Positions 9,493 through 46,072 are shown, numbered from the stretch's first letter. The stretch: DNA of 64,000 nt from Polaromonas sp. (GCA_043728315.1 JAYTMT010000002.1:17138-81137), one strand, 5' to 3'. The notes: generated from the sequence alone by a model not told the origin. Numbers and translations are program-made.

Positions 9493-9535
9493 AGAGCTTT
9501 AAAAGTGCCAGCCTCAATCGATACACTACAAAACC

Positions 9536-28780: not shown

Positions 28781-29485
28781 ATGGTCCTTTCTAATGCGCT
28801 GGCGACAGAACCCACCCCCACACCACTGCGCGGTGTCAAAGCTTCTACTTTGAAACTGCTCTTGGATACCGCCATGTCACTGATGACCGAGCGCGGGTAT
28901 ATTCCCTCGATAGCCGAGGTGGCGATGCGCGCGCACGTCTCTCGTGCCACGGCTTACCGCTACTTTGCCAGCCGCAGCGAGCTGATTGCAGCTGTGGTGG
29001 ATATTTCGCTGGGCCCTGTGCGCAGTTTTCATTCAACACTGACTGATGGACGCGCCCGTGTGGCGCAATTGTTTGAAGAAACTTTTCCGCGCTTCAAGGA
29101 GTTTGAACCGCAACTTCGTGCTGCGGCGCAGCTCTCTCTTGAACACCAAGCGCTGGAACGTGCTGGTTTATTAGAAGAAAAGCCTTACCGCCGTGGCCAC
29201 CGCATTGCGATCTTGGCGCACGCCATTGAGCCACTAAGCACACAGCTCACCCCAGAAGTGCATCAAAAACTACACCAAGCCTTGTCTGTGGTTTATGGAA
29301 TTGAGCCCTACATCATCTTGCGCGACATATGGCATGCCACAGACAAACAGATTGAGAACACCGCGTTGTGGATGGCGCAGGCCTTGTTAGATGCAGCAAT
29401 AAAAGAATGCCAAGGCATCCCCTCAGAACCAAGACCCCCAGCACGCGTAACCCGCCGCAGCCGCGCCATGTCACAGCCAGTCTAA
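28781..29485 (+). CDS. TetR family transcriptional regulator
   Basis: N-terminal HTH IAEVAMRAHVSRATAYRYFASR. It is divergent from the catabolic operon. Confidence 0.85.
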   Translation: MVLSNALATEPTPTPLRGVKASTLKLLLDTAMSLMTERGYIPSIAEVAMRAHVSRATAYRYFASRSELIAAVVDISLGPVRSFHSTLTDGRARVAQLFEETFPRFKEFEPQLRAAAQLSLEHQALERAGLLEEKPYRRGHRIAILAHAIEPLSTQLTPEVHQKLHQALSVVYGIEPYIILRDIWHATDKQIENTALWMAQALLDAAIKECQGIPSEPRPPARVTRRSRAMSQPV

Positions 29486-29657
29486 GCCGTATCTGGACTT
29501 GTCGGCTTTAACAGCCAGATAGGCGCTCAGCGCTGGTAAGCGCAAAAACAGTTGCACCATCCCATAAATTAGGGATTGAGCGGAGTGCGCAAGTGGGTAA
29601 CAATTGGTTAAAGTGTGGTTTGCTGCGCAAAGTGCGGCAGTTCACCAATTTTGATGC

Positions 29658-30362
29658 ATGAAAATCTCTGCTATGACTACTATTTCTAATGCTTTTTCGC
29701 GCCATGTGGGCGGTGCTTTTCGTTGCGCCACTCTGGGGGGCGCAGCTGTTCTGTCACTGTCTGCATTGACAGCAGCAGCCCAAGCACCAACTGCAGCGCA
29801 GATGATTGAGCAACTCAAAACCCAGCCCGCGCCAGCAGTGGCTCCCGCCAATGCACCCAGAACACGAAGCTTGCGCAACTTGACCGTGGAGGCAGTCAAC
29901 CCTGCGGCAGCTACTGCCACAGCAGCCGCGCCTGCTACAGTTGGCGCAGCAGCCAGCGCTGGGCCGGCAGCTGCCACTGGAGCGCCTGTAGCAGCGCAAA
30001 CACCTGCACCCACCGAGCCAGCGCGCCCATCGCTGTCCCTGCTGATCCAATTTGACTTCAATTCCGCCCGCGTCAAGCCCGAGAGCCAGCAGGCACTGGC
30101 CAATTTGGCGGTGGCGTTGCAGTCGCCCGAGCTTAAAACCTTTCGCTTCGCCGTAGAAGGCCACACCGATGCCCAAGGCCGCGCCGACTACAACCAAAAG
30201 CTCTCGCAGCAGCGGGCGGATGCCGTGCGTGACCAGCTTAGCAGCCAAGGCGTGGCCGCTGCGCGCCTCTCGCCAGTGGGCAAGGGGTCGAGCGAGTTGG
30301 CCAAGCCCGACGAGCCCTATTCGGCTGAAAATCGCCGCGTGCGCATTGTCAACATGGACTAA
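29658..30362 (+). CDS. OmpA-family (OmpA_C peptidoglycan-binding) exported protein
   Basis: Signal peptide ...LTAAAQA-P, an Ala/Pro-rich linker, then FDFNSARV...VEGHTDAQGRADYNQKLSQQRADAV...NRRVRIV. Confidence 0.85.
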   Translation: MKISAMTTISNAFSRHVGGAFRCATLGGAAVLSLSALTAAAQAPTAAQMIEQLKTQPAPAVAPANAPRTRSLRNLTVEAVNPAAATATAAAPATVGAAASAGPAAATGAPVAAQTPAPTEPARPSLSLLIQFDFNSARVKPESQQALANLAVALQSPELKTFRFAVEGHTDAQGRADYNQKLSQQRADAVRDQLSSQGVAAARLSPVGKGSSELAKPDEPYSAENRRVRIVNMD

Positions 30363-30449
30363 CTCTCTGTGCCCGCTACAGCTATCCGCATCCACGTCGC
30401 CAAGCGTCCAACCAATCAAAAAATGCACTGATTTATGAAATTTAAGCAC

Positions 30450-30494
30450 AATGTCAGCGTCATATGGTCATATTGCGCTATTAAAAATGTAGTG
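30450..30494 (+). repeat. dispersed repeat core, copy B
   Basis: aatgtcagcgtcatatggtcatattgcgctattaaaaatgtagtg, with subfamily 2 left flank atttatgaaatttaagcac. It overlaps the 5' end of the caspase-1 ORF. Confidence 0.85.
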
Positions 30495-32831
30495 AATAAA
30501 ATCGCCGTGGCTTGCTCCATAGTCTGCGGCACATGCAGCCTTGGTCTGCCACCAGCGGCTTGGGCGCAAGCGGCCAAGCCCGCCAGCAGCAAGGACGCCG
30601 ACCGCAATTTGCAGGTTACCGCTGCGCCAGCGGCAGCGTTTCCGGGCCAGTCTGCGGGACGGCGCGTGGCCTTGGTGATTGGCAACAGCGCCTACAAAGA
30701 CTCGCCCCTGCTCAACCCCGTGAACGACGCACGCGCTATCAGCGCCGCGCTGACGGAGTCTGGCTTCACCGTGATTGCCCGCGAAAACACCGACCAGCGC
30801 GGCATGCTGTCAGCCCTGCGCGAGTTTGGCGACAAGCTGCGCGACGGCGGCGTGGGTATTTTTTATTACGCAGGCCATGGCATGCAAATCAAGGGGCGCA
30901 ATTATTTGATCCCCGTGGGCGCAAGCATTGAGCGTGAGGACGAGGTGGCCTACAGCGCGGTGGACGCGCAGGCCGTGCTCGACAAAATGGAAGCTGCAGG
31001 CAACGGCACCAACATAATGATTTTAGATGCCTGCCGCAACAACCCCTTTACCCGCAGCACCCGCAGCGGCCAAGCCGGTTTGGCGCAAATGGACGCGCCC
31101 GTGGGCACTTTGGTGGCCTTTGCCACCAGCCCGGGCGCTGTTGCCAGCGACGGCGGCGGGCAAAACGGCCTGTACACCCAGCACCTGCTCACCGCCATGC
31201 GCCAGCAGGGCGCTAAGGTGGAAGATGTGTTCAAGCAGGTGCGCGCCAATGTGCGACGCGACTCGCAGGGCAAGCAAGTGCCATGGGAGAGCACCTCGCT
31301 GGAAGGGGATTTTTACTTCAAAGTGCCCACTGGTTTGACTGCTGGCGCACCCAGCGCGGGTTTCAACGCAAATGCCGCAGTAGAAGCCGCCCTGTGGGAT
31401 GCTGTGAAAAATAGCTCCACACCCATCGAGCTGCGCGCCTACCTTAACCGCTATCCGCAGGGGCAATTTGCAGCGCCCGCGCGCGCGCGCTTGGAGCAAT
31501 TGCTGCCAGCTACAGCGCAAACAGCTGCTGCGGTAAACCCGGCTACCCAAAGCCCCCGCGTGAATTACCGTGTGGGCGATAGCTGGACATTTGCGGTCGA
31601 TAACTTGCTCACCAACAAGCAAAGCAGCTACACCCACCGCATCACATCAGTGGCGGCCAATGGCGACGGTTTGATAAATGAAGGTGCTGTTGTGTATAGC
31701 GCCACGGCCCAAGCCAAATACATACGCAGCGAAGACCGCGAGCGGTTTTATAGCGATGGCTTTCGCAGCACCCCCAGTCAATTGCGCATCGGCTTTAAAG
31801 AGCCTGTGAGCTACGAAATCATCACCAAAAATAAAGACGGCAGAGATGACAAGTTCATAGCCGCAGGCACGATTGAAGTCGCAGCCCAAGAAAAAGTCAG
31901 CACCCCCGCTGGCGAATTCATGGCTTGGCGCATCAAGCGCATCACCCGCGGCACCTTGGCCAACGGCGATGCGCATTTGCTAGACCACACCTACTGGTAT
32001 GCGCCCGAAATAAAACGCTTGGTAGCCCAAGACACCACCGACACCAATCTCACCACAGGCAAAATCACCTCACGCGCCAAGGTGAGCTTGCAAAAATACT
32101 ACTTAGCAGATGCCACCCTGAGCGCCAGCGCAGATGGCATAGCCGCCGTAGAGAAGCGCACCGACGAGTTGCTGGCGCAGCTGGCACTGGCTAAGCCCGC
32201 AAGCAGTGGCAGCCCTAAGCCAAGCATTGCGAGCAACAGCTTTGGCTACACCGTGGGTGACCGCTGGCGCTACCAAACGGTAGACCGCTACAAATCAGAG
32301 GTCACAGGCAATTGGTCGCGTCAGGTGGATAAATTTGATGCACAAGGCGGCATCACCATGCGCGGGGGCACTGTACGCTGGTCAGCAGACGGCTCGTGGC
32401 GCTACCAGCGCGATGCAGATGGCAGCACGCTGGAGTATTCTGATAATTTCAAAATGGTGCCTGCCACGCTCAAGGCGGGTCACTCAGAGAAAGCAAAGTT
32501 CACGCTCACGTGGAAAAACAGCGGTGGAAACGGACAAGAGGAACGCAGCGGTGATGTCAAGGTGCTTGGCCTAGAAAAAATCAAAGTGCCCGCTGGGGAA
32601 TTTGACGCTTGGAAAATCGAGCACAAAGGCTTCATCACAGGTAAAAACCTCAGCGCTTCCACCGCCTATAACCAAAGCTACACCTTGGTGCAATGGTATG
32701 TGCCCGCTCTGCGCGCCTATGTGGCAGAAGACTATGAACGGCGCGATAGCCGTGGCAATATCGACCGCTTTGTTCGCCAAGAGCTCACCAGCTTTGAGGT
32801 GGCAGGGGCTCAGCACCTCGCCCAGCGCTAA
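30492..32831 (+). CDS. exported caspase-family (peptidase C14) protein with two C-terminal beta-rich repeat domains (caspase-1)
   Basis: Signal peptide ...LPPAAWA-QA. C14 blocks VALVIGNSAY, NPVNDA, YYAGHGMQ (His) and LDACRNNPF (Cys). The start is ambiguous: ATG 30435 lies inside the repeat flank, and in-frame GTG 30492 gives a normal-length signal peptide. Confidence 0.8.
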   Translation: MNKIAVACSIVCGTCSLGLPPAAWAQAAKPASSKDADRNLQVTAAPAAAFPGQSAGRRVALVIGNSAYKDSPLLNPVNDARAISAALTESGFTVIARENTDQRGMLSALREFGDKLRDGGVGIFYYAGHGMQIKGRNYLIPVGASIEREDEVAYSAVDAQAVLDKMEAAGNGTNIMILDACRNNPFTRSTRSGQAGLAQMDAPVGTLVAFATSPGAVASDGGGQNGLYTQHLLTAMRQQGAKVEDVFKQVRANVRRDSQGKQVPWESTSLEGDFYFKVPTGLTAGAPSAGFNANAAVEAALWDAVKNSSTPIELRAYLNRYPQGQFAAPARARLEQLLPATAQTAAAVNPATQSPRVNYRVGDSWTFAVDNLLTNKQSSYTHRITSVAANGDGLINEGAVVYSATAQAKYIRSEDRERFYSDGFRSTPSQLRIGFKEPVSYEIITKNKDGRDDKFIAAGTIEVAAQEKVSTPAGEFMAWRIKRITRGTLANGDAHLLDHTYWYAPEIKRLVAQDTTDTNLTTGKITSRAKVSLQKYYLADATLSASADGIAAVEKRTDELLAQLALAKPASSGSPKPSIASNSFGYTVGDRWRYQTVDRYKSEVTGNWSRQVDKFDAQGGITMRGGTVRWSADGSWRYQRDADGSTLEYSDNFKMVPATLKAGHSEKAKFTLTWKNSGGNGQEERSGDVKVLGLEKIKVPAGEFDAWKIEHKGFITGKNLSASTAYNQSYTLVQWYVPALRAYVAEDYERRDSRGNIDRFVRQELTSFEVAGAQHLAQR

Positions 32832-32863
32832 GCCCTGCATCGCTAGCCCCTCACCGCCAACCC

Positions 32864-34507
32864 ATGAACCTCTGGCAACGCAGTACCCAAGCCCTAGGCG
32901 CGCTCCCCGCGCGGCGCGTCACGTGGGTGTTGGCCATCGTATTTAGCCTGTGGGCGGTGGCCGATATGGCGTATTTCAAGGTATCTAGCGGCTTGGCGCA
33001 AAACAGCTACGACGCGATGGTGCGCGCCCGCCTGTATGCCCCGCCCGCCGACCCGCGCGTGCTGATCATCGACATTGACGAAGCATCGCTCTCGCGCATG
33101 GCCAGTGAGTTTGGCCGCTGGCCGTGGCCGCGCGACACGCTGGCTACCGTGCTTGATTACATCGAAAAGCAAGCGCCCGCCGCCGTGGTGTGGGATGTGC
33201 TGTTTGCCGACCCGGACCGCCTCTCGCCTGGCGGCGACAAAGCTTTTGACGAGGCGGCCAAGCGCAGTGCCCACAGCCATTTTCCGGTGGTGCGCCTGCC
33301 CGCTGCCAACGACGGCAAAAGCAAACTGAGCCGCAGCGGTTTGCCCAATTTGTGGCTGCCCAGCACAGATGCGGCGGTGAACCAAAGCACGCAAACGCTG
33401 GCTGTGATCCCTCCATTTTTGGCAAGCATTGCCAACAGTCGCTTGGGCTACAACAACGGCTACCCCGACAACGATGGCGTGCTGCGCCGCTACCGCTATG
33501 TGGAGCGCCTGCCCGGAGGCGGCGTGATCCAGTCCATTCCCGTGAGCGTGGCGCGCAGCCTGAATGCTGCGCAAATGCAAAATACTTCTAATTTAATAGC
33601 AGAAGACGACGCTTTCACGCCGACATCAGGTAAAAAAATCTTAAAAGACAAGCTCATGGTGTGGCGCAAAAATGCCAACGCCTACCCGCGCGTGGCTTTT
33701 GCCGATGTGTTCAACGCCGCCGAGGGCGGCAAGCCCCTGAAAGCGCTGCCCGATTTCAAAGGCAAAATCATCGTCATAGGGTCCACTGCGCCCAGTTTGC
33801 ATGACATCCACCCCACGCCGCTGGCGCCCACGCAGGCTGGCGTAGACAGCTTGGCCACCGCCATCGACAACGCTGTGAACGGCCATTTCGTGGCCGAGCT
33901 GCCGCGCTGGCTGCAAGCGGGGCTGGCCGTGCTCATGTGTGTGCTGCTGGCCTACTGGGTGAGCGGTTTTCAGGGCGGCAAAGGCTTGGCCTCATTAGAC
34001 CCAGCCTTGTTGATCTTGCCGGGCACTTTGCTGGCCATCAGCTTTGCCAGCCTCAATGGCACGCCCTTGTTCGTTGACTTGCAGCTGGCCGCAGGCACTG
34101 CCTTGCTTTTTTTAGCGGCGCTGCGCACATGGAATGGCTGGCGGCGCGACCACTGGTGTGGCTACTCGCCCGCCCCAGAAGCGCTTGTTGGTGTGCACGC
34201 CTCCCAGCCGCTGGCCGGTGTGGGCCTGGACCGCTTGATTGGCATGTTGGCCAAACACGCCCCCGCTTGCCGCGTGGTGGCCGGTGATGCCAGCGCCACA
34301 TGGCCGGCCAGCCTGCGCTGGAGCGAGTTGGCGCGCTTTTGTGCCGTATGCGGCCCCGCTGAGCAGCTTGCGGCTTTGGCGCAAGCGCCTTGGCCAGACG
34401 GCACGCAGTTTGGCGCCACGCAAATGCTGGCTAATTTGCCTGCCGACAACCCGCAGCGCAGCGCCCACATTGCCCAAGCAGCAGTGCGTGCTTGCGCCGC
34501 TTTATAA
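32864..34507 (+). CDS. CHASE2 domain membrane protein without recognisable output domain
   Basis: N-terminal TM segment and the CHASE2 hallmark VLIIDIDEASLSRMASEFGRWPWPRDTLATVLDYI...VVWDVLFADPD. Three C-terminal TM helices are followed by a ~130-aa tail in which I recognise no motif. Confidence 0.8.
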   Translation: MNLWQRSTQALGALPARRVTWVLAIVFSLWAVADMAYFKVSSGLAQNSYDAMVRARLYAPPADPRVLIIDIDEASLSRMASEFGRWPWPRDTLATVLDYIEKQAPAAVVWDVLFADPDRLSPGGDKAFDEAAKRSAHSHFPVVRLPAANDGKSKLSRSGLPNLWLPSTDAAVNQSTQTLAVIPPFLASIANSRLGYNNGYPDNDGVLRRYRYVERLPGGGVIQSIPVSVARSLNAAQMQNTSNLIAEDDAFTPTSGKKILKDKLMVWRKNANAYPRVAFADVFNAAEGGKPLKALPDFKGKIIVIGSTAPSLHDIHPTPLAPTQAGVDSLATAIDNAVNGHFVAELPRWLQAGLAVLMCVLLAYWVSGFQGGKGLASLDPALLILPGTLLAISFASLNGTPLFVDLQLAAGTALLFLAALRTWNGWRRDHWCGYSPAPEALVGVHASQPLAGVGLDRLIGMLAKHAPACRVVAGDASATWPASLRWSELARFCAVCGPAEQLAALAQAPWPDGTQFGATQMLANLPADNPQRSAHIAQAAVRACAAL

Positions 34508-34619
34508 GCTTGCTACAAATACCCTGTTTCAAATACCCTGCCAATGCCAACCCTGCACATTCCGCACGCTAGACCGCATGCCATCCATTTTTAGACAATT
34601 ACCCACCAAGGAGCGAACT

Positions 34620-36740
34620 ATGAACCACCACCAATTTACCCCATTTGCACGCAGCCTGAGCGCCATTGCATGGTGTTTGGCCGCCGCAGGCGCAGGCGCG
34701 CAAAGCACCGCGCCCGTGCAGGTGCTGCGCAGCACCGAGCTGCGCAGCGACAAAATTCCAAGCGCTGAAGCCATGGCACAAGTAGCCGCAGGCAGCAGCT
34801 TGCAAGTGCTCAGCTTAGAAGGCGGCTGGGCCTATGTGGAGGCGGGCGGCAAACGCGGCTGGGTGCGCGCATCGGTGCTTAACCTGAGCGCCACCACCAG
34901 TGCCGCCGCCGCGCAAGACTCTGCGCGTGGCGCATCGGGCAACACCGCGCTTACGCTGGGTGTGCGCAGCCTCACGCCGCGGGTGGACCGCCACGCCCTG
35001 ATCATTGGCGTGGGCGTGTATGCAGACAAAGACACCCCGCCCTTGCCGGGGACCAAAATTGACCGCGAATCGGCCACCCAAATTGCGCAAGCCATGCAAG
35101 TGCCAGTAGGCAATATTGCCTATCTGCACGACGCTGCAGCCACGGGCGATGCCATCCGCAAAGCGCTGACTGACCTGAACAGCCGCGTGCAAGACGGCGA
35201 CAAAGTGTTCATCCATTACAGCGGCCACGGCACGCGCTACAAAGACGATGCCTCCGGAGGCTGCGTAGAAGCCTTGTTGGCCTACGATGGCGGACAAAAA
35301 GGCACGATCACCAACCGCGAGATGGCCGATTTGCTCAAGCCGATTACAGGCAAAACCGACAAGCTCATGGTGATTTATGATGCCTGCCACTCGGGCGGCC
35401 TGATCAAAGCCGATGCACCCCTGCGCTCGCGCGGCATCAGTGTGCTGGGGGATGAAGGCGCGCTGCGTCCCAAATTCTCCAGCATCACCGAAGAGTGCGG
35501 GCGCCCTGTCAACATCAAAACCCGCAACCTCACGGTAGAGCAGGTCAGCAAGGGCGCGCTGCCCCAAGACATCATCCACATCAGCGCCGCGCGCGACAAC
35601 GAGATCAGCTTTGACGATGAGTTCAAAGGTGGCTTGGCCACCCAATTTATCCGCGACTGCATGCTGCGCGATGCCAAAGACCTGGATGGCTCAGGCGCTA
35701 TCAGTATGAAAGAAGTGCAGATGTGCGCCCAAGAAAAAGTCAACAACCGCATGAAGAACGATGCCAACTTCAAGGCGCACAACATCACCCTGTCGGGTAA
35801 CGGCGAGTTCGTGCCAGCATGGTTTAGCCAAGCGGCCATAGCGGCCACTTCTGCGGCAGCACCTGTTGTGATGGCTGCCGCTATACCCTCGGCGGCTTCT
35901 GCCGCCGCCGCGGTGGCGGCCGCCCCAGCAGCTGTGGGAGCGGCCACCTCAGCCGCAGGCGCTGTGGCTAGCGCCATAGGCGCAGTGGCCTCCACGGCCG
36001 CCGCTGTTAAACCCACGGCAACGCCCGCCCCTGTGGTAGCCAGTGCCCCAGCCAGCCCTGCGCGCCCCCCCACAACAGCCCCTGTCGCCGTGGCTGTTGC
36101 ACCCCCTGTTCGTCCGCAAACGCCTGCGCCAGCCGTTGCAGCCGCTGCGCAAGTAGCAGCCGCAGTGGCCGTGCCTGTCGTAGCCGTAGCACCCGTAGCC
36201 CCGCCTGCTCTGTCAGGCGAGCAAGCCCTGCGCCAAATGTATGACCAGCGCGATGCCAAGCGCAATGTGCGCGTGGTCACCAGCAAAGACAAACTCAAAA
36301 TCGGTGAAGATTCGTTTGACTTTTCCGTGCAGTCCGAAAAAGACGGCTATGTGTATGTGGCCATGGCAGGCTCAGACAACAAAAGCATGTATTTGCTGTT
36401 TCCTAACGACTTGGACCAAAACAACAAAATAGAAGCAGGCAAACAGCTGCTGCTGCCCCGCCCCAACTGGCGTTTAAAGGCCAGCGGCCCTGCAGGCACA
36501 GACACTATTCTTGTCTTTGTGGCCGACGGTCCACGCGACCTCACCAGCCTTGCTGGCAGCAAAGCCGGGCCCTTCGTCACATCGCTCAACGACAGCACTG
36601 GCCGCGCCCGCCTAGGCGCGCTCATGAGCACCAGCAAAACCGTTACCACCCAAGAGTGCAGCGGCGCAGCCCGCAAAAACAACCCCCTGTGCTCGGACGC
36701 TTATGGTGCTGCGATGATCAGTGTGGAAGAGGTGAAATAG
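34620..36740 (+). CDS. exported SH3b - caspase (C14) - Ala/Pro linker - DUF4384 protein (caspase-2)
   Basis: ATG 34620 has an AAGGAG RBS (track ORF 34239 is an upstream extension overlapping the CHASE2 gene). Signal peptide ...AGAGA-QS. SH3b-like GWAYVEAGGKRGWV. C14 blocks HYSGHG and YDACHSGG. The C-terminal 'DGYVYVAMAGSDNKSMYLLFPN' is typical of DUF4384. Confidence 0.8.
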   Translation: MNHHQFTPFARSLSAIAWCLAAAGAGAQSTAPVQVLRSTELRSDKIPSAEAMAQVAAGSSLQVLSLEGGWAYVEAGGKRGWVRASVLNLSATTSAAAAQDSARGASGNTALTLGVRSLTPRVDRHALIIGVGVYADKDTPPLPGTKIDRESATQIAQAMQVPVGNIAYLHDAAATGDAIRKALTDLNSRVQDGDKVFIHYSGHGTRYKDDASGGCVEALLAYDGGQKGTITNREMADLLKPITGKTDKLMVIYDACHSGGLIKADAPLRSRGISVLGDEGALRPKFSSITEECGRPVNIKTRNLTVEQVSKGALPQDIIHISAARDNEISFDDEFKGGLATQFIRDCMLRDAKDLDGSGAISMKEVQMCAQEKVNNRMKNDANFKAHNITLSGNGEFVPAWFSQAAIAATSAAAPVVMAAAIPSAASAAAAVAAAPAAVGAATSAAGAVASAIGAVASTAAAVKPTATPAPVVASAPASPARPPTTAPVAVAVAPPVRPQTPAPAVAAAAQVAAAVAVPVVAVAPVAPPALSGEQALRQMYDQRDAKRNVRVVTSKDKLKIGEDSFDFSVQSEKDGYVYVAMAGSDNKSMYLLFPNDLDQNNKIEAGKQLLLPRPNWRLKASGPAGTDTILVFVADGPRDLTSLAGSKAGPFVTSLNDSTGRARLGALMSTSKTVTTQECSGAARKNNPLCSDAYGAAMISVEEVK

Positions 36741-36763
36741 GGTAAATTATAAAAAATACTACT

Positions 36764-36807
36764 GATGTCATCGTCATATGGTCATAGTGTGCTATTAAAT
36801 TAATACT
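36764..36807 (+). repeat. dispersed repeat core, copy C
   Basis: gatgtcatcgtcatatggtcatagtgtgctattaaattaatact, preceded by aaaaaatactact. It ends 18 nt before the caspase-3 GTG. Confidence 0.8.
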
Positions 36808-36825
36808 CAAACGAGGAGATAAGCG

Positions 36826-38418
36826 GTGATTCATAAATTCTCAAAACGGCTTGCATGCTTGGCGGCATCCACGCAAATTTCACGCACTTTGGCCAAATCT
36901 GCACTGGCCCTGGCCATCACAGCTTCGCTGCTGCCGCTGTCTGCCCAAGCCCCGGTTGACCTGCGCATTGCCTTGGTGATTGGCAACGCTGCGTATGCAG
37001 GCGCAGCCGCGCTGGCCAACCCTGCCAACGATGCCAAGGCCATGGGCGAGGCGCTGCGCGGCCTAGGCTTTGCCGTGGTTGAGATCCGCGACGGCAGCCG
37101 CGCCCAGATGGCAGAGGCTATAGGCAAGGTGCAAGCAAGCCTCAAAGGCAAGCAAGGCATAGGCATGCTTTACTACGCAGGCCACGGCCTGCAAGTCGAT
37201 TGGCGCAACTTCATGGTGCCCATTGATGCCAAGCTGGCCAAAGCCGCCGATGTGCCAGAGCAAACCATAGATTTGGGGAGCGTCATCGACGCATTCAAAT
37301 CAGCTGGCAACCGCATGAACATTGTGGTGCTCGATGCCTGCCGCGACAACCCGTTTGAAACAGGCGGCAACAAAGTGTCCACAGGCAAAGGCCTAGCACC
37401 GCTTGATGCGCCTACGGGCACATTCCTAGCCTATGCCACCGCGCCTGGCAATGTGGCCGAAGACGGCGATACCAAAAGCGTGGACGGAAAAGCAGGCAAT
37501 GGCCTGTACACCCAATTTTTATTGCAAGAGCTCAAAAAACCAGCAGCCAAAATCGAAGACGTGTTCAAGCGTGTGCGCCTGAACGTGCGCCAAAAATCCG
37601 AAGGCAGACAAATCCCGTGGGAGTCCACCAGTTTAGAAGACGACTTTTATTTCAACGCAGGCCTCAAGTCCACGCAAAAAGAATCCGACAGCGACAAAGA
37701 AAAAGCCTTTGCACTAGAAAAAGCCGATTGGGACAAGATCAAAGACAGCAAAGCGGCCAACGACTTTTATGCGTTTTTGCAGAAATACCCCAGTGGTTTT
37801 ATTACCGAGCAGGCGCAATTCAAAGTAGAGCAACTTCAAAAGGCGCAAACAAACGCGGTTGCTAATCGCGACGGTGTGACCCCAATTGCCGCCAGCGCAC
37901 GCAGATTTCGTCTGGGCGACGAGACAGAATTGGACATCATTGACGGATTTACCAAACTGAGTCGCCGAGTGAAAATAACGGTGGTTAAGGCCAATGACGA
38001 AGAAGTTGAACTTAGCGCAGGACAGATTTGGGGGCAAACAGGTACATTGCTGAAAAATAACTTTGGCACGCACAGCCCCGGCATTTTGATTTCCCCATCA
38101 GATTTGGCATTAGGTAAGCGTTGGAAAACCGCTTTTCAAACCAAAAGACCAGATGGTGTACTGGAAACCTCGTTTTGGGAATACCACGCAAAAGCATACG
38201 AGACGATTACTGTGCCGCAAGGGACATTCAAGGCGATCTATGTAGTTGGCAGTGGTCAGGCGCGCTGGCCTAATGGCATCACCCATTTAGAGGCCAAGTC
38301 GTGGTTTGATCCCGTTAGTTTGCGCAGGCTGCGTCACGAAAGTATTTTTCGCAACAGCGGAAAAATTACCCATTTTCAAATCATTGATTCGGTGTCTTTT
38401 AAACAAGGCGCGGGTTGA
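36826..38418 (+). CDS. exported caspase-family (C14) protein with one C-terminal beta-rich repeat domain (caspase-3)
   Basis: GTG start after a GAGGAG RBS. Signal peptide ...LPLSAQA-PV. C14 blocks ALVIGNAAY, NPANDA, YYAGHGLQ and LDACRDNPF. It is a close paralog of the caspase-1 protease domain. Confidence 0.85.
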   Translation: MIHKFSKRLACLAASTQISRTLAKSALALAITASLLPLSAQAPVDLRIALVIGNAAYAGAAALANPANDAKAMGEALRGLGFAVVEIRDGSRAQMAEAIGKVQASLKGKQGIGMLYYAGHGLQVDWRNFMVPIDAKLAKAADVPEQTIDLGSVIDAFKSAGNRMNIVVLDACRDNPFETGGNKVSTGKGLAPLDAPTGTFLAYATAPGNVAEDGDTKSVDGKAGNGLYTQFLLQELKKPAAKIEDVFKRVRLNVRQKSEGRQIPWESTSLEDDFYFNAGLKSTQKESDSDKEKAFALEKADWDKIKDSKAANDFYAFLQKYPSGFITEQAQFKVEQLQKAQTNAVANRDGVTPIAASARRFRLGDETELDIIDGFTKLSRRVKITVVKANDEEVELSAGQIWGQTGTLLKNNFGTHSPGILISPSDLALGKRWKTAFQTKRPDGVLETSFWEYHAKAYETITVPQGTFKAIYVVGSGQARWPNGITHLEAKSWFDPVSLRRLRHESIFRNSGKITHFQIIDSVSFKQGAG

Positions 38419-38454
38419 TACATTAGCCCAAAATACATCCATCTTTTTTACATA

Positions 38455-38694
38455 ATGCCTCAAAAAACTCCCCCCTTAGCTAGTGCTGCCGATACCGAAC
38501 GCGACGCTTTAGAGTTGCGCACTCGTAAGCTGCAAGTGCGTGCTGCGTTACGCGCCAAGCATGCAGAGCGCTCCGCACGCGCAGCTTCTTGTGCCAGCAT
38601 GGTTGGCATATTACCCAAACCAAGTGACCAGTGCAGAACCTTGGTTATCGGCAACGCCTACTCAGGCAAGGCTGCTTTGGCCAACGATGCCTAG
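38455..38694 (+). pseudogene. remnant of a fourth caspase gene (only the first ~25 codons of the C14 domain, ending at TAG)
   Basis: 38636-38710 (ccttggttatcggcaacgcc...gccaacgatgccTAGgccatgggcg) aligns with caspase-3 36970-37046 (ccttggtgattggcaacgct...gccaacgatgccAAGgccatgggcg). Similarity stops ~12 nt before the convergent EamA stop. Confidence 0.5.
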
Positions 38695-38721
38695 GCCATG
38701 GGCGCGGGGAGTACTGCTGGG

Positions 38722-39645
38722 CTATTTGGTTCGACTTCCCATCACCGCCGCGCCCACTATCAGCAAGGTGGCGATGGCAATGCTCCAATTGAGCGCCCTG
38801 CCCGTGGCCAGCATCAGCAGCACGGTGGAGGCCACAGGAGTGGCGTAGCTCAAAATACCGATTTGCCGCGCATCGCCCAACTTGAGCGCTTTGTCCCACA
38901 AAAAGAAGGCGGCGCCAAGCGGGCCCAAACCCATCACAGCCATCAAGCCCCAGTCTTGCCCGCTTAGCGCCGTGCGCGGCTCTAGCGCTGCGTGGCACAG
39001 CAGGGATAACAGGCCGCTGACGAGGCCAAACAGACCAATGGCAGCAGTGGGAAAGCTGCGCCCTGTGCTGGCCAAACGCTTGGTCATGAGTGAGTAGCTG
39101 GCCCAAATGAAGGCTGAGCCGAGTGCGGGGATGTAGCCCCAAGCAAAGCCAGAGAGCGCACCTGAAGGCACACCGACAGAAGCGCCTGCTGCAGCGCCGC
39201 CAGACGCACCCACCGACAAGCCCGCCACTGCACCACTGCTAGCGCCAAGTATGGCGATACAAGCTCCCGCAAACCCGATCAAGGCGGCGGCCACATGCGC
39301 CGTTGAAAGGCGCACGCCAGCCAAAAACAGCGGCGCAAGCACCACTATGAAAAGTGGCCACAAGTAGTTGACCAAATTGGCCTCCACCGCTGGTGCGTGG
39401 CGCAGGGCAATAAAGAGCAAAAAGTGGAAACCAAACAGCCCGTAAATGCCCAAGGCCAACACGCCTTTAGACACCCGCCATTGCCTAAAAAATGGCCAAG
39501 CGGGGATGCTGCCAATCAAAAGCGCAATGCCAGTGAGCAAAAACGGCGGTACATGCTTGAGTGCCAAACCCAGCACAGCCAGTGACGACCACAGCGCGAT
39601 GGCGCAGGCGGCCAGAAAAATGGGTGAAGACAGAAGTTTTTTCAT
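38722..39645 (-). CDS. EamA/DMT family transporter
   Basis: 307 aa with ~10 TM helices and two EamA-like halves. Confidence 0.75.
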   Translation of the reverse strand: MKKLLSSPIFLAACAIALWSSLAVLGLALKHVPPFLLTGIALLIGSIPAWPFFRQWRVSKGVLALGIYGLFGFHFLLFIALRHAPAVEANLVNYLWPLFIVVLAPLFLAGVRLSTAHVAAALIGFAGACIAILGASSGAVAGLSVGASGGAAAGASVGVPSGALSGFAWGYIPALGSAFIWASYSLMTKRLASTGRSFPTAAIGLFGLVSGLLSLLCHAALEPRTALSGQDWGLMAVMGLGPLGAAFFLWDKALKLGDARQIGILSYATPVASTVLLMLATGRALNWSIAIATLLIVGAAVMGSRTK

Positions 39646-39721
39646 GAATATATTTTTGCGTTTTGCGCATCTTTTTTGCGCTTTTAGCGTTACCTAAATC
39701 CGTGCTGATCCTAACGCCCAA

Positions 39722-41287
39722 TCAAAGCCCCGCGAAATTACTTTGCAGCCGCTGCACATTCACCACGCACACCGCACGCAGCTCGGCGCTGATGCTGCCA
39801 AGCGCCTGTGCGCGCTGCCAATAGCCAATCGCCCACTCCCGTGCCAGCGCGGCCTCGGCGGCGTAGCCTGCGGGCAGATGCTGCGGGCGAATCGGCTGGG
39901 CATCGAGCGTGCCGGTGTGGATGCTGGGCCGCCACTGCATGGGCAGCATGTCGTACACGGGGGTGATGCGAAACTGCGGCCTGTGCACATCGGCCACAAA
40001 GAATGACAAGTTGCCAAAATGCATGTCGGTGTTGCCAATATAGTGGCCAAACCTGTAAATCAGCGCGACTTGGCGCAAGTCTTCAGCGGGCAGCAGTTTG
40101 AGCGCCACCAAGGCTTCACAAGTAGCCACCCAGTGCTGGCGCGGCGTATTCACAAATGCATCGTGCACGGCCGACGCGGCCACCACATGGCGTTTGCCCG
40201 CTGTGCCCATGCGGTCAAAGCGCTGGGACTCTAGGTAGCTGCGCTGGGCGCTTTCTAGCACCCGCGTGTGGGCGCAGGCAATGCCGTGGCCACGTAGCAC
40301 TTCGTTGGCCAAGTGCTCTAGGTGCAGCAAATCATGCCAGCGCTCGCCAAAAGGCGTGCCGCGTGGGGGCGTGTATTTGACGATGGCATGGATGTGTGGC
40401 GTGGTGGCTGAGGGTTGGGATGGCGCGCCTTCTTGCGCGGCCTGCAATGGCGGGGATTGCAAGCTGGTTTGCAAGCGCACGACAAACTTGGGTTGCTCAC
40501 CGCCTGCGGATGAGCCCGCAGGCAGGCGCGTTCCAGTTTGCGCGGCCAGCGCGTCGTAATAGGTGGGCAAAAGCGGGTCGGCGCTGTTTAACCAGCTGCT
40601 GTCGGGTTCGCCGCCCAATGGACTGATTAGTACGCCACTTATTGGGCCGCTTCGCGCGCCAAGGCTTGATGCAGCATGGCCCAAGCCAGCGCCTGCTGGC
40701 GCGCTGCGGCGCGTGCCCAACTCCAGCGCGCCGGGCGGGTCGGTGGCGTGGTTGGCGGCTATGTAGAGCACTTGCTCGGTAGTCCAAGCGTCTGGGTCAG
40801 GCGGAAAATCAGGCCGCAAGGTGGTGTATTGCCTGCCCAAAAAGCCCTGTGGCCGCAGCCCTGCCAAAAACCAGGGCAGCGCCTTGTTGCCCAGCCATTC
40901 ACCCCATGGTTGAGCCGCTGGCGCGGGTGACGGGCCGGGGCGCTGTAGCGCAGTGGGCAGACTGCGAAGCAGCTGCACTGCACTGCGCACATGCACATCA
41001 CCGTTGTGCAAAAAACTTAAAGTCCCAAAGGCTTGCGCTGCACCACCATCACCCGTCCAATACAAGCTTTGCTTAGCGGGCAGGCCAAGAATAGGCTGGG
41101 TGAGCGCATAGCGCGTACTGCGCGCCGCGCCCAGCTTGCACACCCTGCTGCCCAGCGCTTGCAATGCCAAAGAAATGCTCGGCTGGCTCTTGCCCGTGGC
41201 CGCTTGCAGCTGCGCCGCCGTCAACGCAGGCGCTTGTGCCAGCAGGCCGAGCAGGCTGTCTGTGAGGGTGTTGTCAACAGGATTCAT
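39722..41287 (-). CDS. HipA-family Ser/Thr kinase with N-terminal HTH domain (YjjJ/HipH-like)
   Basis: N-terminal wHTH-like LTAAQLQAATGKSQPSISLALQALG. HipA_C motifs GGEQPKF and GNTDMHFGNLSF. No separate hipB-like gene is adjacent. Confidence 0.7.
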   Translation of the reverse strand: MNPVDNTLTDSLLGLLAQAPALTAAQLQAATGKSQPSISLALQALGSRVCKLGAARSTRYALTQPILGLPAKQSLYWTGDGGAAQAFGTLSFLHNGDVHVRSAVQLLRSLPTALQRPGPSPAPAAQPWGEWLGNKALPWFLAGLRPQGFLGRQYTTLRPDFPPDPDAWTTEQVLYIAANHATDPPGALELGTRRSAPAGAGLGHAASSLGARSGPISGVLISPLGGEPDSSWLNSADPLLPTYYDALAAQTGTRLPAGSSAGGEQPKFVVRLQTSLQSPPLQAAQEGAPSQPSATTPHIHAIVKYTPPRGTPFGERWHDLLHLEHLANEVLRGHGIACAHTRVLESAQRSYLESQRFDRMGTAGKRHVVAASAVHDAFVNTPRQHWVATCEALVALKLLPAEDLRQVALIYRFGHYIGNTDMHFGNLSFFVADVHRPQFRITPVYDMLPMQWRPSIHTGTLDAQPIRPQHLPAGYAAEAALAREWAIGYWQRAQALGSISAELRAVCVVNVQRLQSNFAGL

Positions 41288-41364
41288 TAATAGATACTTT
41301 TTTATAAGTATCTGTCAATAATCAAATTTTGTCAAATTTTTAATAAATAAATTAATAGATACTT
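41286..41364. promoter_or_regulatory. AT-rich promoter/operator region of the HTH-HipA gene: 14-bp perfect direct repeats plus an 8-bp palindrome
   Basis: attaatagatactt occurs at 41286-41299 and 41351-41364. agatactt (41292-41299) and aagtatct (41306-41313) form an inverted repeat. Confidence 0.45.
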
Positions 41365-41376
41365 CAATTGAACCAC

Positions 41377-44300
41377 CTAGCGCACCGCATGCAGTGGCTT
41401 GAGCAGTTCGGCCAAATCGTTTTCGGTAAACAAGGGTTGTTTGCGTGCGGCGGCATCGCTGTACATGCTTTCGGCCAGCTGGGCTTTGCGCTCTTGCAGT
41501 TGCAGCATGCGCTCCTCAATCGTGCCTTGGGCTACCAATTTGTAAACCATGACTTGCTGGGTTTGGCCAATGCGGTGGGCGCGGTCAGTGGCTTGGTTTT
41601 CCACCGCTGGATTCCACCAGGGGTCGTAGTGAATCACGGTGTCGGCCTGCGTGAGGTTGAGCCCCACACCGCCCGCTTTGAGGCTGATTAAAAACAAGGG
41701 CACTTCGCCGCTGGTAAAGCGCGTGATGATGGCATCGCGTTTTTGGCTTTGACCCGTAAGCTTGACCCAAGGGATGGACTGCTTGGCCAGCTCTTCTTCA
41801 ATCAATTCGAGCATGCTGGTAAATTGCGAAAAAAGCAGCACTTTGCGGCCTTGGGCCAGCAGCTGGGGCAGCAGCTCCATCAGCAGTTCGAGTTTGGCCG
41901 ACTGTTTGATTTTTTTGGCGGACGCGGTGGGCACCAAGCGCGGGTCGCAGCAGACTTGGCGCAGCTTGAGCAAAGCATCGAGCACTTGAATTTGCGAGCG
42001 CGCCAAGCCTTTGTTGGCCAGCGCTTCCTGCACGGCTTTTTCGGTGGTTAGGCGGATGGTTTCGTACAAATTGGCCTGCTTGTCGCCCAGCTCTACGCTG
42101 GTGATGCTGGTTTGCTTGTCCGGCAGCTCGGTGGCCACCTCACGTTTGGCGCGGCGCAGCATGAAGGGCGTGACGCGGCGGCGCAGGTGCGCCAAACGTG
42201 CCGTGTCGCCGTGTTTTTCAATGGGGGTGCGAAACAACTCTTTGAAGCGCGTTTGGCTGCCCAAAAACCCTGGCATCAGAAAATGGAACAAGCTCCACAA
42301 TTCGCCCAAATGGTTTTCCATGGGCGTGCCCGACAGGCACAGGCGGTGGCGGGTATTGAGCTGGCCAGCGGCTTGCGCGGCGAAGGTGTGGGCGTTTTTG
42401 ATGTTTTGCGCCTCATCGAGCACCACCAAGTGCCAAGCTTGCTTAGCCCAGTGCTCAGAATCACGCGCCAGCAGTGAATAGGAGGTGATGAGGATGTCTT
42501 GTTTGCCAATGTGCGCCGCGTCTTCATGCCGCTCAGCACCGTGCCAGATCAAGCTGGTAAGTGCGGGTGTGAAGCGCCCAATTTCGCGCTGCCAGTTGCC
42601 CAGCACGCTCACGGGGGCCACGATCAACACAGGCAAATCCAAGCGCCCAGCGGCTTTTTCGGCGGCTATGTGTACCAAGGTTTGCAGGGTTTTGCCCAGC
42701 CCCATGTCGTCGGCCAAAATGCCAGATAACTGGTGGGTGCGCAAAAATTGCAGCCAATTGAGGCCCTGCTGCTGGTAGGGGCGCAGCTGGGCATTGACAC
42801 CATCGGGCAACGCCACCTCGGGCATTGTGTCCACGCCATGGAGCTGCTGCACCATGAGGCGCAAACTATCCGCCCCCGCCCATACCGCACCAGCGCCCAG
42901 CGATGCGCCCATTTGCAATGCCTCAAAGCGCGACAGCCGCAGCGTATCAGCGCCCGCTGCAATGGGCCGGTCACCCACCAGCTCGATCAAGGCTTGCAGC
43001 CAAGGCCGCAGTGGCTCGGTGGGCAGGCGCAGGTATTGGCCCTCTGGCGTTGGCAAATACACATAGGTTGGCAGCTGTAGGCTGGTGCTTTCATCGCTAG
43101 TGGCTTGCGCAATGCCGTCTGGCCCAGACGCACTGCGGTGCACCACGGTTTGCAGCTGCGCCAGCAAGCTGGGGAGCATGGGCAAAATGTTGTGGCGCTG
43201 GCCGTTGATGCTGATGCCCAGCGACAGGTCAAACCATGGCGACTGGCTGTCGTCCGTGCCGGCCAAATCTGCACTGCCTTGGCCCGCAAGCTGCACATGC
43301 AGGTCGTCTGCGCGTTTGATCCAGTCTTGCAAGTTGGGCTCTAATGTGATCTCAAAGCCCAGCGCCCGAAGCTGGGCGTAGTCGCTGTCGGCCCACGCTA
43401 GCCACTGCGGCAATTGCGCACTGGGCGTGAAGGCCAAGCTGAAGTGGCCTCGGGCATCGCCCGCTAGCCCCAGGGCAATCAGGCGGCTGATGCTGCTTTG
43501 CTCAAAGGCCATGTCGCGGTGCAGCAGCCAGCGCTCGCTGGGCGCTGCTGCAGCGCCGCTGAGCGCCGCATCTTTTTCAATGACGATGGGGTTGGCCAAG
43601 CTTTGGGTGAAATGCGCCACGGCCCCGTAGTCAAAGCGCAGGGTGGCCATCAGGGGGCCAAAGCGCGCCACATCATGGGCGGCTACTGCGGCAATGTGCA
43701 AGCGCGCCGTGGGCGTGATGCCTTGCAACACCTGCGGCGGGTGCATCACGGGCGGCAGGGGCAGGCCAGCCAAGCGGCGCAAAAAGCTGGTTTCATGCTT
43801 GGCAAAAGCCGACTGCGGAATCGGTGGTGCTTTGACCAGCAAGGCCAAATGCGCACTGGATACGCCGGGCATCTCTAGCAAGCCATACTCACCGCTGTCG
43901 ATATCTATGTACATGGGCGGCGTGTTGAAATACCAGCGCTCGTGCACTTGCGCTTTGCTGCGGTCTGGGCTCAAAGCCCACGAAGGCTCGGTGGATTTTA
44001 AGTTGGTCACCTCGTTCCACTTCCAGGCCATGGGGCGTGGCGCACCTGTTTGCATGGCTGCGCCTAGGCTGCGCTCTTGCTCGCAAAAAAACAAATGCCC
44101 GCTGCTGGCGGCCAACTGCATGGCCAGCACCCCAGTTGAGCCAGCCAGCACGCATTGGTGCTCCGAAAGGTTGCTGTAATAGTATTGCGCGCCGGACATG
44201 CTTTTCACCAAGCGCTGGATATCTGCAGCCAATGGGCTGGTTTTTTCTCGGTCGTAATAGGGGATGGTTTTGAGTTTAGACCAGTTGCCGTTGCGCAAGC

Positions 44301-44904
44301 GTTTGGCGATGCCCATGGTGAGGTTTAGCACCTCGTAGTGGTCCACATGCTTGGCGCTGAGTGCATACACCACCGTGTTTTCGCTGCCTTTGGCAGCAAA
44401 GCTGTCTGGCGCATCGCTGGTATCGGGCATGGCCTGCGCATCGCCAAATAAATCAAGCCACTGCGTGACTTTGTGCTGTGCAACGCGTTGCTCTTGTTCT
44501 AGGGCTTGGCGGGCTTGCAGATCTTTGAGGCGCTGCTGCTCAGCGTGGGTGGGCAATGCAGGCGCATTTGCTCTGGCTAAGCCCGATATGCCCGCTTTGT
44601 AAGCTGCTTTGAGCGTGACAGCCAAGCAGTGGTTGCAATCTATGCCTACCGGGCAACTGCAGGTTCCTTCGTAATAGGTAACGCTGCCTTGCGCATTGGT
44701 TTCTAGCGCTACCTCTACGTTGTAGTTGTCGTATTTGCTGCCCAGCACCAAACCATCAATGAACCATTCATTTTGCGCGCCAGAGGCTATGCTGCACTCC
44801 AACACATGCTGACTATGGTAGACCGCTAAACCGCGTTGGTAGGTGGCATCAGAAAAATGGTCGGTGAGCGAGTGGGGGTTGATTAAAAATGCGCTGTTGT
44901 CCAT
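41377..44904 (-). CDS. SNF2-family helicase with N-terminal SWIM zinc finger
   Basis: 1175 aa. SWIM motif CSCPVGIDCNHCLAV. Helicase motifs LADDMGLGKT, DEAQNIKN, SGTPMENHL and QATDRAHRIGQ. Confidence 0.85.
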   Translation of the reverse strand: MDNSAFLINPHSLTDHFSDATYQRGLAVYHSQHVLECSIASGAQNEWFIDGLVLGSKYDNYNVEVALETNAQGSVTYYEGTCSCPVGIDCNHCLAVTLKAAYKAGISGLARANAPALPTHAEQQRLKDLQARQALEQEQRVAQHKVTQWLDLFGDAQAMPDTSDAPDSFAAKGSENTVVYALSAKHVDHYEVLNLTMGIAKRLRNGNWSKLKTIPYYDREKTSPLAADIQRLVKSMSGAQYYYSNLSEHQCVLAGSTGVLAMQLAASSGHLFFCEQERSLGAAMQTGAPRPMAWKWNEVTNLKSTEPSWALSPDRSKAQVHERWYFNTPPMYIDIDSGEYGLLEMPGVSSAHLALLVKAPPIPQSAFAKHETSFLRRLAGLPLPPVMHPPQVLQGITPTARLHIAAVAAHDVARFGPLMATLRFDYGAVAHFTQSLANPIVIEKDAALSGAAAAPSERWLLHRDMAFEQSSISRLIALGLAGDARGHFSLAFTPSAQLPQWLAWADSDYAQLRALGFEITLEPNLQDWIKRADDLHVQLAGQGSADLAGTDDSQSPWFDLSLGISINGQRHNILPMLPSLLAQLQTVVHRSASGPDGIAQATSDESTSLQLPTYVYLPTPEGQYLRLPTEPLRPWLQALIELVGDRPIAAGADTLRLSRFEALQMGASLGAGAVWAGADSLRLMVQQLHGVDTMPEVALPDGVNAQLRPYQQQGLNWLQFLRTHQLSGILADDMGLGKTLQTLVHIAAEKAAGRLDLPVLIVAPVSVLGNWQREIGRFTPALTSLIWHGAERHEDAAHIGKQDILITSYSLLARDSEHWAKQAWHLVVLDEAQNIKNAHTFAAQAAGQLNTRHRLCLSGTPMENHLGELWSLFHFLMPGFLGSQTRFKELFRTPIEKHGDTARLAHLRRRVTPFMLRRAKREVATELPDKQTSITSVELGDKQANLYETIRLTTEKAVQEALANKGLARSQIQVLDALLKLRQVCCDPRLVPTASAKKIKQSAKLELLMELLPQLLAQGRKVLLFSQFTSMLELIEEELAKQSIPWVKLTGQSQKRDAIITRFTSGEVPLFLISLKAGGVGLNLTQADTVIHYDPWWNPAVENQATDRAHRIGQTQQVMVYKLVAQGTIEERMLQLQERKAQLAESMYSDAAARKQPLFTENDLAELLKPLHAVR

Positions 44905-44939
44905 GGCGACTGAGAGTGGTGCTAATTGAAGCTTTGGGT

Positions 44940-45935: not shown

Positions 45936-46072
45936 GGGGCTATTGTCGCCGACTGGGCAAGGGGCTGCTGAAATGGGGCTGACGGGGTAGCGCTTAGTGT
46001 GGGCCAAGCCTGCATGGAATTGGCGCGTGAAGAAAGCCTTTGGCGACGCTTTACCGCAGGGCTTTTCTTCGC

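Follow-up and report, generated by a model that had tools for sequence, protein, structure and literature searches.

A conserved operon pairing a CHASE2 membrane protein with predicted exported caspase-like proteases in Polaromonas and other Burkholderiales

What do bacterial caspase homologues do outside cytoplasmic defense, and what do the ectodomains of CHASE2 proteins sense? Both questions have been open for more than 20 years, and they are joined in a locus of Polaromonas sp., a freshwater bacterium of the Comamonadaceae, that lies in the 64-kb stretch of DNA analyzed here (GCA_043728315.1 JAYTMT010000002.1:17138-81137, hereafter the window). ORF calling across the window confirmed the six open reading frames (ORFs) that a preliminary description of this DNA had placed in the 29658-38710 region, namely the genes for an OmpA-like protein, a first caspase-like protease (caspase-1), a CHASE2 membrane protein, two further proteases (caspase-2 and caspase-3), and the remnant of a fourth caspase. 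In the five intact genes, all of the domains claimed at that time (OmpA, C14, CHASE2, SH3, and DUF4384) exceed their Pfam gathering scores. Our tentative answer, to which we give somewhat less than an even chance, is that the locus encodes a wall-tethered periplasmic protease module, probably specific for Arg/Lys and coupled to transmembrane signaling via CHASE2, of which a reduced form is present here. A functional link would make the operon the first caspase-type protease system with several components in the Gram-negative periplasm and would give a role to at least three families of no known function (DUF4384, the cytoplasmic tail of the CHASE2 protein, and a protein of the relatives here called p165).

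The operon across relatives

Metagenome contigs were scanned with a CHASE2 alignment, and 80 loci were picked by their CHASE2 gene only, forming 51 non-redundant clusters at 90% identity; the ORFs of these loci were searched with the domains of the window, and each count given here refers only to loci whose contig is long enough to tell. The surveyed loci span pairwise CHASE2 identities of 42-100% and G+C (GC) contents of 0.51-0.69. Directly after CHASE2, a gene of the SH3b-C14(-DUF4384) type, that of caspase-2, was found in 51/51 loci (37/37 clusters), with a gap of -8 to +113 nucleotides (nt) in called genes, and an OmpA-like gene stood directly before CHASE2 in 66 of 72 loci (44/47 clusters). 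With these counts, the co-occurrence of CHASE2, exported C14, and OmpA genes, on which the preliminary description had made its reading depend, goes far beyond chance. Caspase-2 is the invariant protease partner of CHASE2, and the label "triple-caspase" first given to the system fits only this strain. Contigs annotated with Pfam agree with the survey and include Variovorax terrae and Polaromonas bins; a Polaromonas metagenome bin encodes a CHASE2 protein 90% identical to that of the window, an 82-kb metagenome scaffold carries a caspase-2 copy identical to the window's, and a scan of a genome collection with a single protein returned only five close loci. All named carriers are Burkholderiales except one metagenome bin labeled Cytophagales, a label that is doubtful. 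The genetic linkage is near-perfect in the named genera Variovorax, Polaromonas, and Rhizobacter, which include culturable strains, and the operon supplies concrete candidates for a substrate, a receptor, and an output domain. Plasmid-borne copies were considered and rejected: tblastn against 72,556 plasmids matched distant CHASE2 kinases and cyclases only (23-29% identity where more than half of the query aligned), and the three plasmid neighborhoods inspected were response regulator, FecR, and CHASE2 operons distinct from the caspase operon.

Relatives often extend the operon beyond caspase-2. The exported p165, a protein of 150-170 amino acids (aa) with no Pfam family, follows caspase-2 in 27/42 loci (22/33 clusters), often overlapping its end by 4 nt; it is encoded, for instance, at 13573-14088 of L018 and 6314-6763 of L044, with about 25 further loci, and has a conserved PALRPRALVPQIDILKPEP stretch. 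An exported TPR-CHAT protease of ~1000 aa is encoded at most 2.5 kb after caspase-2 in 19/33 loci (16/28 clusters), sometimes in two tandem copies (L002, 13701-16853, minus strand; L025, 14098-17097; L059, 14076-17027; and others), and extra caspase-1/3-type genes occur anywhere in the locus in 8 of 20 loci. The window has neither p165 nor TPR-CHAT, caspase-3 and the pseudogene occupying that place, and it holds a reduced version of a wider operon. A variant without CHASE2 is found in Rhizobacter sp. J219 (L097, 6925-15045). It comprises three caspase-3-type genes in tandem and genes for a 273-aa exported protein, an OmpA-like protein carrying an Arg-rich ATRSSRNLI stretch, a C14-DUF4384 protein that lacks SH3b, and a 143-aa exported protein; it is followed by GerE-type regulator and histidine-kinase genes.

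The operon lies beside lipA/lipB, ptsI, or murB at conserved chromosomal positions, and the HipA-SNF2-lipA-lipB neighbors of the window recur in L015. Its core is also conserved in sequence, with mean column identities of 52% in the CHASE2 family alignment and 61% in the caspase-2 family (42 homologues). Neither the conservation of the core nor that of its positions would be expected of a mobile accessory island, and the earlier suggestion that the locus is accessory does not hold for the syntenic core: the caspase-1/3-type paralogues, which are peripheral and variable, are the only part of the operon in flux. The multi-component operon is robust; we found it described nowhere, and it contains three families of unknown function.

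Predicted export, wall binding, and caspase-2

Sec-type export is predicted for every soluble component. Signal-peptide-like N-termini, recognized by a scripted heuristic (basic residues, a hydrophobic core, and a small-x-small site; not SignalP), are found on 4/4 soluble proteins of the window (the OmpA-like protein and caspases-1, -2, and -3), and by the same heuristic, signal peptides also begin the p165 and TPR-CHAT proteins of relatives. The signal peptides previously noted on the proteases survive the choice of start codon, with a correction to caspase-3, where the cut had been placed after AQA. Since Pro at position +1 blocks signal peptidase I, cuts at LSA-QAP in caspase-3 and AAA-QAP in the OmpA-like protein are likelier than AQA-P, each lying two residues upstream of the site first proposed. 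The start of caspase-1 is ambiguous (ATG 30435, GTG 30492, or GTG 30507) because a dispersed element overlaps its 5' end; the hydrophobic core and the AWA-QA site are kept under all three choices. For the OmpA-like protein, an automatic gene call on the source contig puts the start at Met49, by which the signal peptide would be lost, and the long ORF is right because homologues conserve the residues before Met49 and carry signal peptides there. Export is further supported by six invariant non-catalytic Cys (three pairs) in the 42 homologues of caspase-2, as disulfides are expected in an oxidizing compartment.

The OmpA-like protein (29658-30362, plus strand) is a predicted exported peptidoglycan-binding protein of the OmpA_C type (Pfam PF00691, E value 2.1e-21, 76.5 bits against a cut-off of 27.2), with no NCBIfam equivalog at its cut-off. 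Its signal peptide is followed by an N-terminal peptide, a variable Ala/Pro-rich linker, and OmpA_C at residues 132-224, in which a reading of the sequence finds the wall-binding motif GHTD...LSxxRA, with its conserved Asp and Arg, kept as EGHTDAQG...NQKLSQQRADAV. Right after the signal peptide, an almost invariant peptide is present in 77 homologues, QMIEQLKPAPRTRSLRNLxVE (QMIEQLK..PRTRSLRNLTVE, residues ~48-78), and this Arg-rich N-terminal peptide also occurs in the CHASE2-less Rhizobacter variant.

Caspase-2 (34620-36740, plus strand) combines SH3_3, Peptidase_C14, and DUF4384 (Pfam E values of 1.4e-6, 4e-22, and 5.4e-17; 79.5 bits for C14 against the PF00656 cut-off of 21.4) in the order signal peptide, SH3b, metacaspase-like C14, EF-hand-pattern loop, Ala/Pro/Val-rich linker, DUF4384, and a tail with a Cys pair. 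The dyad H203/C256, in the contexts HYSGHG and YDACHSGG, is invariant in the 42 homologues, and the nearest solved relatives are metacaspases (AtMC4, 1.5e-8; Yca1; Geobacter GSU0716). Residues 354-366 (35679-35717, plus strand) match an EF-hand pattern, DLDGSGAISMKEV, by a regular expression written after PROSITE PS00018; the pattern is present in 42/42 family members and is flanked by the invariant C347 and C369. This loop would bind Ca2+, and Ca2+ dependence is known for some metacaspases. Together, the EF-hand loop and the three Cys pairs would fit what is expected of a Ca2+-dependent, disulfide-stabilized periplasmic enzyme. Caspases-1, -2, and -3 all keep an Asp at the second position before the catalytic Cys, a residue that accompanies Arg/Lys cleavage in their nearest relatives, the metacaspases and the MALT1 paracaspase, and all three are probably Arg/Lys-specific.

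Exported proteases could also be destined for the outside of the cell, as secreted or surface enzymes for feeding, for antagonism against neighbors or eukaryotic grazers, or for biofilm matrix processing, with CHASE2 sensing the products. The signal peptides on all soluble components are compatible with such a use. So is the DUF4384 domain of caspase-2, whose AlphaFold2 (AF2) model (predicted local distance difference test score [pLDDT], 74) folds as an Ig-like beta-sandwich similar to domains of the surface and matrix proteins GbpA and RbmA and of pilus chaperones; this fold fits an extracytoplasmic binding or spacer role, the match being generic and without specificity. In addition, a metacaspase cluster of Psychroflexus torquis has been suggested to serve algal interactions (PMC3914696). 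However, OmpA_C and SH3b indicate retention at the cell's own wall, the operon has no secretion-system genes, and neither a lipobox nor an outer-membrane beta-barrel was seen in the components by the N-terminus heuristic and by reading. We consider an extracellular use of this kind very improbable.

CHASE2, the proposed relay, and the variable periphery

The CHASE2 protein (32864-34507, plus strand) belongs to its family by a wide score (Pfam PF05226, 3.4e-47, 161.6 bits against a cut-off of 26.3). Hydrophobic segments at ~19-38, 350-368, 374-392, and 402-420 give a layout of four transmembrane (TM) helices: TM1 at ~19-38, an ectodomain at ~40-345, three TM helices at ~348-431, and an alpha/beta tail at 435-547, with which the AF2 model agrees (pLDDT, 83.9; predicted template-modeling score, 0.79). 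By the positive-inside rule and this model, the N-terminus and the last 110 residues are predicted to lie inside and the ectodomain to lie outside. The tail (34151-34504, plus strand), which is family-specific in the family alignment, is the only cytoplasmic part of the system, and L455, D456, A466, P467, R470, D475, W480, P481, W486, E488, and G497 are invariant in it. The last TM helix is not followed by a cytoplasmic enzymatic output domain such as those of CHASE2 cyclase, kinase, or GGDEF receptors, and residues 430-547 gave no Pfam match at E <= 1, no NCBIfam match, and no PDB relative by profile or Foldseek search. When 1.84 billion representative proteins were searched exhaustively, the tail turned up in only 25 clusters, all consistent with the same family; in the matches of 364-560 aa it lies near the C-terminus, and the remaining matches are short and probably fragments. 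Other architectures, considered as a route to its function, gave no clue. The idea that CHASE2 is an inactive caspase-like fold pairing with the caspases was likewise rejected, as Foldseek with the CHASE2 model against the PDB gave a best E of 0.27 with no caspase among the matches, and a profile search of PDB sequences found no relative. In L013/L014 (14000-16150), a second CHASE2 protein, of the CHASE2 plus guanylate-cyclase type, is encoded ~4.5 kb downstream of the operon, adjacent to a gene for a cNMP-binding sulfate-transporter/STAS protein; classical CHASE2 receptors can therefore coexist with the tail-type CHASE2.

In the reading that we prefer, the proteases would be held on the sacculus through two peptidoglycan-binding modules, OmpA_C and the SH3b domain of caspase-2, would cut after Arg/Lys, and would need Ca2+. 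Candidate periplasmic substrates are the CHASE2 ectodomain, the p165 of relatives, and, in the OmpA-like protein, the invariant peptide rich in Arg near the N-terminus. CHASE2 would sense cleavage and relay it to the cytoplasm via its tail, and exchangeable input or helper modules would be supplied by caspases-1 and -3, which are MALT1-like and vary in their C-terminal beta domains. A more elaborate form of this proposal, which we hold to be distinctly unlikely, is a periplasmic cascade resembling the Toll/Spaetzle pathway of insects: wall-binding modules and variable MALT1-like sensor caspases would detect envelope damage or foreign molecules and activate the putatively Ca2+-dependent caspase-2 (and TPR-CHAT in relatives), and the clipped OmpA-like peptide or p165 would become a ligand of CHASE2, of a kind long looked for, with the tail as a new output domain.

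Several points weigh against signaling of this kind: (i) the export calls are heuristic, and the proteins may be secreted past the outer membrane; (ii) the CHASE2 tail has no recognizable function; (iii) as the chief weakness, no sigma factor, response regulator, or cyclase is conserved beside the operon in any locus examined; (iv) the Rhizobacter variant lacks CHASE2, so that CHASE2 is not indispensable for the proteases and the OmpA-like protein to work; and (v) the substrate and the direction of signaling are guesses. An alternative is envelope housekeeping that runs from the inside out, where CHASE2 would anchor, position, or activate wall-tethered proteases that process envelope proteins (for example, wall-linked or outer-membrane-tethering proteins) and no signal would reach the cytoplasm. 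Such a role would suit the strong conservation of the core among the housekeeping genes murB, ptsI, and lipA/lipB, the presence of two wall-binding modules, the lack of a conserved downstream regulator in the loci inspected, and the persistence of the proteases and the OmpA-like protein without CHASE2 in Rhizobacter. It is nevertheless somewhat unlikely in our view, as CHASE2 is the sensor part of receptors in the characterized cases found (PMC3501461, PMC13001267), and the 11 invariant residues of the tail are hard to square with a mere anchor.

Around the conserved core tentatively assigned here to a signaling protease module, the two other intact proteases vary. Caspase-1 (30435-32831, plus strand, with a start at 30435, 30492, or 30507) is a predicted exported, MALT1/paracaspase-like C14 peptidase (Peptidase_C14, 3.7e-41, 141.8 bits against 21.4; DUF3108_like, 3.5e-8) with the dyad H129/C181, numbered from the 30492 start, in YYAGHG and LDACRNNPF. 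Caspase-3 (36826-38418, plus strand; Peptidase_C14, 4.7e-39, 134.9 bits against 21.4) has the dyad H120/C172 in YYAGHG and LDACRDNPF; the dyad contexts of all three caspases are exactly as they had been quoted. MALT1 is the nearest solved relative of caspase-1 (3.5e-13), and the predicted exported caspase-3 is called MALT1-like through its paralogy with caspase-1 (34% identity over 485 aa), with which the search for solved relatives was made. The beta-rich, DUF3108-like C-terminal domain is duplicated in caspase-1, residues 570-779 being the repeat; caspase-3 has a single beta-rich domain at its C-terminus, and a comparison of its C-terminal domain with PDB sequences gave none below E 0.1.

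The caspase remnant reported at the end of the locus is real (38455-38705, plus strand). Caspase-3 matched 38419-38721 by tblastn with an E of 3.6e-5, an in-frame stop, and two gaps; the fourth caspase of L101 gave 3.8e-5, and blastn against L101 gave 89% and 70% identity. The pseudogene keeps an N-terminal strand and helix (TLVIGNAYSGKAALANDA followed by a stop) and ends abruptly where the convergent EamA gene has its 3' end. At the same position, the close relative L101, whose caspase-2 is 85% identical, encodes an intact fourth caspase of 595 aa. Caspase-3 itself is missing from many loci; L101 has it intact, L099/L100 have a version truncated to 199 aa, and one close relative combines a 199-aa caspase-3 with a further caspase on the opposite strand. 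The deletion scar is thus real but confined to the periphery.

Dispersed-repeat copies had been described directly before caspase-1 and caspase-3, and they were borne out. An element of ~65 nt with the core GTCAnCGTCATATGGTCATAnTGnGCTATTAAA has 4 copies in the window against 0 expected, at 9300-9365, 30425-30490, and 36735-36800 on the plus strand and 49745-49680 on the minus strand; repeat count and alignment both identify the copies at the caspase-1 5' end and 5' of caspase-3, the latter 91% identical over 35 nt. Each copy stops about 21-27 nt ahead of a candidate start codon, and for that at 36735-36800 the distance is 26 nt, measured to the GTG start of caspase-3 with its GGAG Shine-Dalgarno sequence. 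Diverged copies lie at the caspase-1 5' end in L001, L099, and L101. The element may be a portable promoter-type cassette, and TGGTCA, 17 nt, and TATAGT in the copy at 9332 could, as a guess, be sigma-70-like. Neither of two more definite identities was supported: Rfam had no match in the whole window, which speaks against a known RNA, and a promoter scan, bearing on a sigma-70 promoter, calls neither copy in the locus.

Such turnover favors a role in defense, and the preliminary description had raised phage sensing and abortive infection. Exported caspases and CHAT proteases would then detect phage or toxin in the periplasm and trigger self-damage or defense, with the caspase-1/3-type proteins as diversifying sensors. 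Close relatives differ in their number of caspase-1/3-type genes: some loci have none, others reach about five or six C14 ORFs, and pseudogenes occur. The protease domain of these genes is conserved and their C-terminal domains vary. One locus carries inserted PIN and ParD-like genes, the operon of the window has a HipA-like kinase and an SNF2 helicase as neighbors, and DdvA of Myxococcus ties periplasmic TPR-CHAT to phage defense (PMC11506125). Against this stand the vertical conservation and synteny of the core, unlike an island; the HipA-SNF2 pair, which is itself a conserved neighbor, also beside lipA/lipB in L015, with no obvious island; and the operon's lack of a killing effector (pore-former, nuclease, or NADase). 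PADLOC-DB v2 matched the locus only through a generic caspase model (best E 1.6e-21) and ZorB/MotB-like matches to the OmpA domain, with no system-level match and none for CHASE2. Membership in a known defense system was rejected, as PADLOC and NCBIfam matches were generic or sub-threshold; the phage-related reading finds no contextual support, and we regard a defense or programmed-death role as distinctly unlikely.

Upstream, the operon is flanked by a gene for a TetR regulator, and downstream, on the opposite strand, by EamA, the HipA-like kinase, the SNF2 helicase, lipA, and lipB (Pfam). The HipA_C/YjjJ-like kinase gene (39722-41287, minus strand) adjoins that of the 1175-aa SNF2 helicase (41377-44904, minus strand), whose C-terminal 700 residues resemble the PADLOC DpdE model PDLC02842 (E 5e-214), with ZorD-like matches too. 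Among ten ORFs scanned with Pfam across 28781-46855, no sigma-factor, anti-sigma, or CHAT domain was found, and gasdermin, Cas7-11, and Csx30/31 are not among the ORFs of at least 200 aa read as genes in the same interval, all of which are otherwise assigned. The GC content is 0.60-0.62 across 30001-36000 of the window against 0.53-0.55 in the 10 kb upstream. The Ala/Pro-rich linkers in the OmpA-like protein and in caspase-2 probably account for part of this rise, and the synteny kept in relatives argues against recent transfer. In L007/L008, a PIN-domain gene and a small partner gene (9300-9940) lie between the OmpA-like gene and CHASE2, and a ParD-like gene is found ~2 kb upstream of the OmpA-like gene.

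Relation to known systems

A full-text literature search found no paper describing an exported caspase-CHASE2-OmpA system, and in this respect the claim that no such system has been characterized stands; the associations themselves had already been noted. According to a 2012 survey, 14 metacaspase operons include OmpA, and many metacaspases begin with a helix that may be a signal peptide (PMC3501461). In a genomic island of P. torquis, four metacaspases have a CHASE2 protein as their neighbor, and signal peptides are flagged in some genes of this cluster (PMC3914696). Fusions of cytoplasmic caspases to CHASE2 have also been listed (PMC3501461; PMC8195603).

Gasdermin-activating proteases, the type III-E Craspase (Csx29), and the EACC/TRADD-N-associated caspases (PMC8195603; bioRxiv 10.1101/2022.08.17.504292) belong to the same protease superfamily as those of the window, and DUF4384 is likewise the C-terminal domain of some Csx30 proteins. 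There is also a weak resemblance to the hidden Markov model of the EACC1-type caspase (70.8 bits against a cut-off of 140). However, these proteases are cytoplasmic, with NTPase, CRISPR, or gasdermin partners of which there are none here, whereas the proteins of the window are predicted to be exported and wall-tethered. The metacaspases AtMC4, Yca1, Trypanosoma brucei MCA2, and GSU0716 align best with caspase-2, including its HYSGHG and DACHSGG motifs. Eukaryotic metacaspases are intracellular and have no signal peptide, and we know of no characterized metacaspase in a context of SH3b, DUF4384, and a CHASE2 partner.

On the receptor side, the Sinorhizobium meliloti cyclases CyaD1/CyaD2/CyaK, which answer a protein signal via the outer-membrane protein NsrA (PMC13001267), and the Burkholderia BiofilmReg system, in which a response regulator, a periplasmic LysM/FecR wall-binding protein, and a CHASE2 histidine kinase are encoded together (PMC5192318), share the ectodomain family and the topology of TM1, ectodomain, and three TM helices. 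In both, a periplasmic or envelope partner is co-encoded or needed, that of BiofilmReg binding peptidoglycan. The three plasmid neighborhoods inspected in the survey are of the BiofilmReg operon type. They differ from the present locus in having cyclase or kinase outputs, against a 110-aa tail without known fold or family here, in partners that are not proteases, and in ectodomains of only 23-29% identity.

The closest characterized precedent is DdvA/DdvS of Myxococcus xanthus, where the anti-sigma factor DdvA has a periplasmic TPR-CHAT domain whose self-cleavage is proposed to start signaling (PMC11506125). With this protein, the premise that the characterized bacterial caspase-like proteases are all cytoplasmic, from which the preliminary description had started, no longer holds. 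In both cases, a periplasmic clan-CD (caspase-fold) His/Cys protease domain is linked to a membrane protein whose cytoplasmic domain is small, physically so in DdvA and as proposed here for the window, and relatives of the window locus also encode exported TPR-CHAT proteins. The DdvA protease, however, is fused to the anti-sigma factor, with a partner extracytoplasmic function (ECF) sigma factor alongside. Here, the proteases are separate soluble proteins, CHASE2 has four TM helices and an unrelated tail, no sigma factor lies nearby, and the window has no CHAT gene; a zinc-binding anti-sigma domain, TPR-CHAT in the same chain, and an ECF sigma partner, the marks of the DdvA type, are all missing, and the CHAT proteins of relatives are separate exported proteins. 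The domain families of the operon are all known, and a periplasmic signaling protease of the caspase fold has one precedent in DdvA.

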